Assembly (NCBI RefSeq): GCF_016026235.1
Contig: NZ_CP065613.1
Origin: Escherichia coli
GTDB lineage: Bacteria > Pseudomonadota > Gammaproteobacteria > Enterobacterales > Enterobacteriaceae
Direction: 5' to 3' (one strand)
DNA length: 64,000 nucleotides
Part shown: positions 49,342 to 49,631 of the stretch, piece after piece
Layout of the letters: each line of letters starts with the position of its first letter
How positions within the stretch are numbered: position 1 is the stretch's first letter
Position numbers and translations under genes: made by a program
Notes under the pieces: model-generated
The model's database searches: none
What the model was told of the DNA's origin: nothing
Seen by the model: the letters and a program-made list of their open reading frames with translations, nothing else

Positions 49342-49631
49342 GATCGTCTCTGGTTCAGGAAGTATTACAGGCAGTGTTGTGCAAATTTTGCGGATTATCA
49401 AATCCTTTTCTTCAACGCTATGTCATCGATCTTGTATCACTTTTTTGCCGGAAGTTGTTTGTATTTTTATTGATGTGCAGATATTAGAATTGTCGTAATG
49501 TTATATACATGGCGTATTTTATTCTTACTGGTTCTACACATGTTAATCGCATCTGATTGATCAGTTCACCTTAATAAGTTTAATAAATCGTACTGCACAT
49601 AGTACAGTACGATGGTGGCTATATAATTGAT

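Follow-up and report, generated by a model that had tools for sequence, protein, structure and literature searches.

The described systems closest to the locus analyzed here are back-to-back divergent sigma-70 promoter regions, target-site duplications of insertion sequences, genomic islands of the attL/attR type and the PgrR (YcjZ) regulon of K-12. Known transposases typically make target duplications of about 2-14 bp. Direct repeats of 30 nt are near the minimal length for RecA-dependent crossover and are typical of att cores. For K-12, the operon ycjY-ymjDC-mpaA has been published as part of the PgrR regulon, and the published SELEX list of PgrR contains, in this region, the ycjY/ycjZ spacer only, neither of the two sequence copies described below being listed.

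We analyzed a stretch of 64,000 nt of the Escherichia coli contig NZ_CP065613.1 (assembly GCF_016026235.1), here referred to as the window, in which two similar segments, copies A and B, lie beside mpaA and upstream of mppA. With a probability of roughly 0.9, we conclude that both are one piece of the old control region shared by mpaA and mppA, duplicated when a four-gene cassette (SDR, two hydrolases, pgrR) entered the space between them in E. coli. The estimate is a joint one and also covers the polarity of the event, that is, a cassette probably gained here rather than lost in the relatives, as parsimony across species suggests. What looked like a regulatory motif is thus recast as a dated evolutionary event.

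Two similar segments beside mpaA and mppA

A sequence-only reading of the window had described a conserved element near mpaA and upstream of mppA, tied to the control regions of two murein-peptide genes, and we found both copies at these places in the control regions of those genes (Table 1). Its match of 28 in 31 positions holds as a similarity but not as a figure: the 31-nt range contains 27 identical positions, and the strings quoted are 30 nt long and agree at 27 of 30, the identity of the two cores. Likewise, copy B is upstream of mppA as described, yet its end is 57 nt, not 55 bp, from the mppA ATG (54965). Copy A occupies 96-125 nt upstream of the mpaA ATG (49341, minus strand), and the two copies are in direct orientation.

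The repeat finder extended the alignment leftwards to 37 nt, of which 32 are identical. The left limit of the duplication is fuzzy, with a 30-nt core, 37 nt at 32/37 and weak similarity for 10 nt further. In shuffled intergenic regions the best 37-nt match had a mean of 22 and a maximum of 24 identities, versus 32 observed; moreover, a degenerate search for the 30-mer that allowed three mismatches gave two hits in the 64-kb window and none in 100 shuffles. Similarity by chance is excluded.

Table 1. Features of the mpaA-mppA region, with positions in the window
Feature	Position	Strand	Remark
mpaA (murein tripeptide amidase)	48613..49341	-	
Proximal mpaA promoter, predicted, TTGATA-17-AACACT	49373..49401	-	between copy A and mpaA; hexamers read by eye
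Copy A	49430..49466; core 49437-49466	+	core TCACTTTTTTGCCGGAAGTTGTTTGTATTT; mpaA-proximal junction of the insertion
TGaTACAAG, extended -10-like motif	49431..49439	-	left edge of copy A
Inserted DNA	49467..54870		5,404 bp including ISEc20; without counterpart in about 75 related species and in 174 E. coli genomes
Left end of insert	49467..49560		no homology to Raoultella/Klebsiella versions of the module
Hairpin, 9-bp stem (ATCGTACTG/CAGTACGAT)	49587..49613	-	just past the SDR stop codon; read by eye
NmrA-like SDR oxidoreductase	49632..50270	-	full-length form of the K-12 pseudogene ymjC
Second alpha/beta hydrolase	50291..52671	-	split by ISEc20
ISEc20 (IS110-like)	~50870-52317; transposase 51098-52294	+ (transposase)	inside the second alpha/beta hydrolase
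ycjY, alpha/beta hydrolase	52671..53591	-	
pgrR (ycjZ), LysR regulator	53729..54628	+	divergent from ycjY
Right end of insert	54629..54870		without homology in other versions of the module; two hairpin-plus-T sites
QueH fragment (RefSeq label), 25 codons	~54726-54800		downstream of pgrR, in the right end of the insert
Copy B	54871..54907; core 54878-54907	+	core TCACTTTTTTGATGGAAGTTGTTTGCATTT; mppA-proximal junction of the insertion
mppA promoter, predicted, TTGCAT-17-AATAAT	54900..54928	+	-35 (54900-54905) in copy B; -10 (54923-54928) outside it
mppA	54965..57881	+	interrupted by ISEc60 (55204-56496)

The only mobility gene in the insert is the transposase of ISEc20, a later insertion, which is also present in strain FDAARGOS_946 (99.6% identical to the window) and absent from O157:H7 FRIK944 and other strains. 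The QueH label of the short fragment comes from RefSeq only, and the peptide had no match in NCBIfam; should the label be correct, a donor once had queH next to the insert. The ISEc60 element in mppA is IS4-like; its inverted ends measure 19 nt, and 11 bp of its target (AGATTGTCCCC) are duplicated. A query across the ISEc60-mppA junction was matched over 80% or more of its length in just 14 of 5,426 E. coli genomes. MppA is probably inactive in this strain, to judge from the interrupted gene. An Rfam scan of 49250-55050 found no known RNA; its sole sub-threshold hit, a match to the RAGATH-10 covariance model at 54079-54183 inside pgrR (25 bits versus a gathering score of 41, E = 0.17), is most likely due to chance.

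The mpaA-mppA spacer in related species

We collected MpaA loci from one genome per species, which returned 80 loci, and placed the neighbouring genes by tblastn. Among these, mppA and mpaA are directly divergent in about 75 other species of Enterobacteriaceae, including E. albertii, E. whittamii, three other Escherichia lineages, Citrobacter, Enterobacter, Klebsiella, Kluyvera and Leclercia. The start codons of the divergent pair are 138-316 bp apart, mostly 182-190, and in none of the approximately 75 relatives did tblastn find pgrR, ycjY or the SDR gene between mppA and mpaA.

Where these spacers were scanned, the relatives have one copy of the element, in the mpaA-mppA spacer, and the Escherichia loci have exactly one. 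In the alignment this single copy is continuous with the left flank of copy A and the right flank of copy B; homology to the ancestral spacer ends at 49466/49467 and resumes at about 54870/54871. The lengths also agree exactly: 125 nt (49342-49466) plus 94 nt (54871-54964) minus 37 gives 182 bp. Copy A differs from the single ancestral copy only by its T at 49462; copy B has a diverged left half (TCCTGTG.., GCC to GAT) and a right half identical to the ancestral sequence. The single-copy spacer of the relatives, the continuity of the flanks and the sum of the lengths lead us to regard copies A and B as one ancestral sequence duplicated around the insert. The opposite orientation of the element relative to mpaA and mppA, correctly described before, then finds its explanation, because the stretch that was doubled had its place midway between two divergent genes.

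We propose the following course of events. In the ancestor, mpaA and mppA would have stood back to back around a divergent control region of 182 bp in which the element occurred once. Foreign DNA of about 4 kb, made up of the SDR/hydrolase/hydrolase/LysR module and short ends, would have entered this spacer in the lineage of E. coli, and a stretch of 30 nt (TCAC...GCATTT; up to 37 nt with its mismatched left edge) would have been placed on both sides of the insert. Each gene would thereby have retained its full native upstream sequence.

Copy number and variation among E. coli genomes

A 51-nt query around copy A was matched in 5,418 of 5,426 complete E. coli genomes, at a median of two and a maximum of four places per genome; both usual copies are at the mpaA/mppA locus. 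These counts bear on the proposal that the element belongs to a dispersed small repeat or MITE family, a possibility also raised by the sequence-only reading. All that speaks for such a family is the pair of copies itself. Against it are the low copy number, the presence of just two copies in the window and of none in viral contigs, the position of the relatives' copy, which is always in the mpaA-mppA spacer, and the lack of terminal inverted repeats or a palindrome in the element (by the repeat finder, and by eye for the 30-mer). The search for further copies, which had been suggested together with the proposal and covered complete genomes of E. coli and the mpaA-mppA spacers of other Enterobacteriaceae, gave no dispersed family, and we consider a repeat family next to impossible.

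The spacer is uninterrupted, with 182 bp, in 174 of the 5,426 genomes. Most of these empty sites have the ancestral GCC form. Ten others carry a hybrid single copy, with the left edge of the A type and the GAT of the B type, and four more do so at one mismatch (H76-H89, e.g. strain GF4-3, L095 3148-3335). The hybrid copy matches what excision between the repeats would leave, and hybrid copies could be excision products or recombinants formed by gene conversion. A linked polymorphism argues about the empty sites in general: position 49424 is C in cassette-bearing genomes (one exception in 2,940) and T in the outgroups and in the empty sites, of which three were examined, including one hybrid (L095), all with the ancestral T. 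Because of this T, the empty sites look mostly ancestral or recombinant rather than freshly excised, and precise excision between the repeats was downgraded as their source. The same position coincides with an mpaA start site of EHEC, 83 nt from the ATG.

The copies have also changed since the insertion. In Escherichia sp. E1V33 (L005) the cassette is present and copy B has the ancestral GCC form, which argues that GAT arose later, in copy B of E. coli, and that the original duplication would have been a perfect 30-mer apart from lineage SNPs. Within E. coli, copy B shows GCC->GAT and a G/T polymorphism at its left edge; in O157:H7 it has a 1-nt deletion and a T->C change in the T-run. Since one Escherichia lineage other than E. 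coli (L005) has the cassette and 3% of E. coli lack it, either lateral exchange or loss must have taken place.

The cassette is also decaying, in ways that differ between strains. The second hydrolase has been lost in many strains, is frameshifted in O157:H7 and carries an IS in the present strain; in K-12 the SDR gene has suffered a deletion, while A21 has lost an internal part and NCTC9100 a large one. The last deletion (L089) is strain-specific and fuses ycjT to a remnant of ycjY, so that all genes from ycjU to mpaA are gone, together with copy A and some of the cassette.

The four-gene module in other contexts

Klebsiella, Raoultella, Enterobacter and Citrobacter commonly have homologues of PgrR that are 88-89% identical to it, some of them on plasmids. 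Moreover, the whole four-gene module (NmrA-SDR, hydrolase, hydrolase and divergent LysR) is found in unrelated contexts, on a Raoultella chromosome and on plasmid-like contigs of Klebsiella, and this distribution argues that the module is mobile and foreign to the mpaA-mppA site. The DNA identity to the Raoultella and Klebsiella modules is 77-80% and is confined to the range from 49561/49623 through 54628. No sequence resembling the element was found beside the module in the Raoultella and Klebsiella loci.

One plasmid-like Klebsiella contig (L086) has a 69-nt repeat in three copies of 68-75% identity (5265-5333, 8987-9055 and 9577-9645), which separate the four-gene module and an adjoining ASCH-domain gene and resemble cassette boundaries. 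No similarity was found between the ends of the E. coli insert and these 69-nt repeats.

Possible routes of the duplication

We searched the insert for signs of a transposition mechanism and of a recombinase. No terminal inverted repeats or transposon-like ends were found between the two ends of the insert, and neither the RefSeq annotation nor the list of open reading frames contains an integrase or recombinase in or beside it. The duplication has 30-37 nt versus the 11 bp made by ISEc60 in the same window. A target-site duplication of a transposon or IS was therefore rejected: it would be too long, and the insert has neither terminal inverted repeats nor a transposase of its own. We favour integration of a circular DNA carrying the homologous 30-mer, which would have occurred by a single crossover or by site-specific integration through a recombinase since lost; fill-in of a long staggered break is a less favoured route.

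In a rival reading, the 30-mer would serve as an attachment-site core and mark a hot spot of insertion, where the cassette would enter and leave by site-specific or short-homology recombination with an att-like sequence of a circular element. Direct repeats of 30 nt around foreign DNA are typical of attL/attR, the non-module ends of the insert, with the queH remnant, suggest a once larger element, and the differences of copy B fall in its insert-proximal half, as expected if this half came from the incoming DNA. The 10 to 14 empty sites with a hybrid copy also agree with it, as does a second island in the same spacer, that of Salmonella enterica arizonae/diarizonae, whose cdtABC genes have their left junction inside or beside the element. 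However, the insert has no integrase or recombinase within or beside it, the Salmonella island differs in its junctions and is not flanked by a duplication, the Raoultella/Klebsiella module has no copy of the element, and the empty-site E. coli keep the ancestral T at 49424 where cassette genomes have C. We regard the attachment site as possible but rather doubtful.

The Salmonella island (L023 6449-8677; L025) comprises cdtA-cdtB-cdtC, with CdtB confirmed by a match to NF011787 (E = 1e-113). It replaces the mppA-proximal part of the spacer and the native mppA promoter, and no duplication was found on its flanks. A second insertion in this spacer hints that the site is permissive to insertions, and not a specific att site. 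One may also suppose that the middle of the spacer is a preferred integration site for cassettes without integrases, through short homology or recombination acting in trans, with selection keeping only those insertions that duplicate the core of the overlapping divergent promoters. If true, this would account for both the pgrR cassette and the cdtABC island; we think it quite improbable.

Predicted promoters in the divided spacer

Upstream of mppA, TTGCAT-17-AATAAT is the predicted promoter, and the promoter scan reported the equivalent TTTGCA-18-AATAAT at 54899-54928 with 9 of 12 matches. Both the -35 and the -10 block are at least 90% conserved across 68 species. In O157:H7 EDL933, Cappable-seq placed an mppA start 31 nt ahead of the ATG (PMC10469882, supplementary file 6); this maps to about 54934 here, 6 nt past AATAAT, a position taken from another strain and dependent on its start-codon annotation. 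The O157:H7 genome that we compared, FRIK944, has an intact cassette without ISEc20.

For mpaA, the same EHEC EDL933 data give starts at 25, 83 and 228 nt (PMC10469882). The predicted start of the proximal promoter, at about 49366 and 6 nt past its -10, equals the one at 25 nt from the ATG, and the motif TGaTACAAG is 6 nt upstream of the one at 83 nt (49424), so copy A is likely to hold a second mpaA promoter on the minus strand. The generic promoter scan called neither of the two mpaA promoters. RegulonDB gives K-12 starts at 173, 106, 88 and 23 for mppA and at 39 and 41 for mpaA, none of which coincide with those predicted, so the promoter assignments, including that of TTGCAT-17-AATAAT to mppA from its sequence and the start sites published for the other strain, are supported and not settled. 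The start-site table of the ROSE supplement does not list mpaA or mppA.

The arrangement of these promoters suggests how the genes could have tolerated the insertion. Copy B would supply the -35 hexamer and 20-30 bp of upstream sequence for the conserved mppA promoter. Copy A would occupy -64 to -100 relative to the proximal mpaA promoter and would also carry the now orphaned mppA -35. The duplicated 30-37 nt would extend from the -10 of the distal mpaA promoter as far as the mppA -35; had DNA entered at one of these edges with no duplication, one promoter or the other would have been disrupted. We infer that the intact promoters on both sides are the reason why this insertion survived selection.

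In the 68 species with an intact spacer, the blocks conserved at 90% or more are GCAGTGTTGTGCAAA, ATCAAAT, GAAACAAATAATTACGCA, the Shine-Dalgarno sequence and parts of the element, namely ATCA, TTT, GGAAG and TTTGCATTT. The conservation inside the element bears on the idea that the copies are operators of one transcription factor for mpaA and mppA and owe their likeness to selection on binding. Besides the conserved sub-blocks, it is favoured by the role of both genes in the murein tripeptide pathway and by the ancestral position of the element, which had a divergent promoter on either side, as is typical of sites where one regulator serves two genes. Yet duplication at the insertion fully accounts for the similarity, and the copies are diverging within E. 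coli (GAT, the G/T at the edge, the indel in the O157:H7 T-run). The best-conserved block is the mppA -35, no dyad symmetry is conserved between genera (alignment read by eye), and the binding of PgrR reported in this region is confined to the ycjY/ycjZ spacer. Of the earlier suggestion of a shared regulator site, the conservation has held up and the common operator, with copy B drifting and no conserved dyad, appears unlikely. The similarity is better read as the remnant of the insertion, and insertion-flanking repeats that mimic shared operators call for caution in motif discovery.

The block GCAGTGTTGTGCAAA at 49371-49385 is at least 90% conserved at every position in the 68 species, beyond the need of a -10 element, and overlaps the predicted proximal mpaA -10 (AACACT, minus strand); judged by this conservation, it may be an operator for a factor. 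Two other readings of the conserved blocks were dropped by eye: a sigma-54 promoter, the spacing being off by one, and a CRP/FNR-type site, which had no second half-site. For work on mpaA and mppA expression, the native upstream sequence now measures 125 and 94 nt, respectively, and the conserved promoters are placed within it.

The K-12-type deletion and the PgrR operon

The deletion of the K-12 type removes about 663 bp (49469-50131 of the window versus L002 3868-3876). It starts 2-6 nt past copy A, has a TATT microhomology at its joint and takes away the 3' end of the SDR gene and the hairpin; Escherichia sp. E1V33 (L005) shares this joint. The generic scan left this hairpin uncalled, as it has few G-C pairs. 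Its sequence and place make it a probable terminator between the cassette operon and mpaA, and the deletion probably created the read-through operon ycjY-ymjDC-mpaA. The link between PgrR and mpaA in K-12 would then probably depend on this later deletion. The ycjY-pgrR genes of E. coli, viewed as genes of peptidoglycan recycling, are in this account a foreign cassette inside the mpaA/mppA control region.

Comparison with known systems

The scar of the insertion is an ordinary kind of feature, and a literature search found no description of this particular one at mpaA/mppA. The unusual length of 30 nt for a duplication without a recombinase makes it a minor mechanistic puzzle. Like the target-site duplication of ISEc60, it doubles the target on both sides of the insert; unlike it, it has 30-37 nt instead of 11 and encloses an insert without a transposase or terminal inverted repeats. 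Islands of the attL/attR type share more with it: direct chromosomal repeats bracket foreign DNA, relatives with the empty site have one copy, and the cargo is also found elsewhere, plasmid-like contigs included. Here, however, there is no integrase and no target in a tRNA gene or at the 3' end of a gene, and the cargo, metabolic or regulatory genes, amounts to no more than about 4 kb.

The PgrR regulon of K-12 (ycjY-ymjD-ymjC-mpaA) consists of the same genes as here. In contrast to the K-12 operon, the hairpin is intact in this strain and ISEc20 breaks the operon, so mpaA here should depend on its own promoters. Finally, the ancestral 182-bp spacer resembles back-to-back divergent sigma-70 promoter regions, with conserved -35/-10 pairs in both directions, starts about 126 bp apart and the element between and into the two promoters. 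The present locus differs from such regions in that the spacer has been split and its central part doubled, once for each gene.
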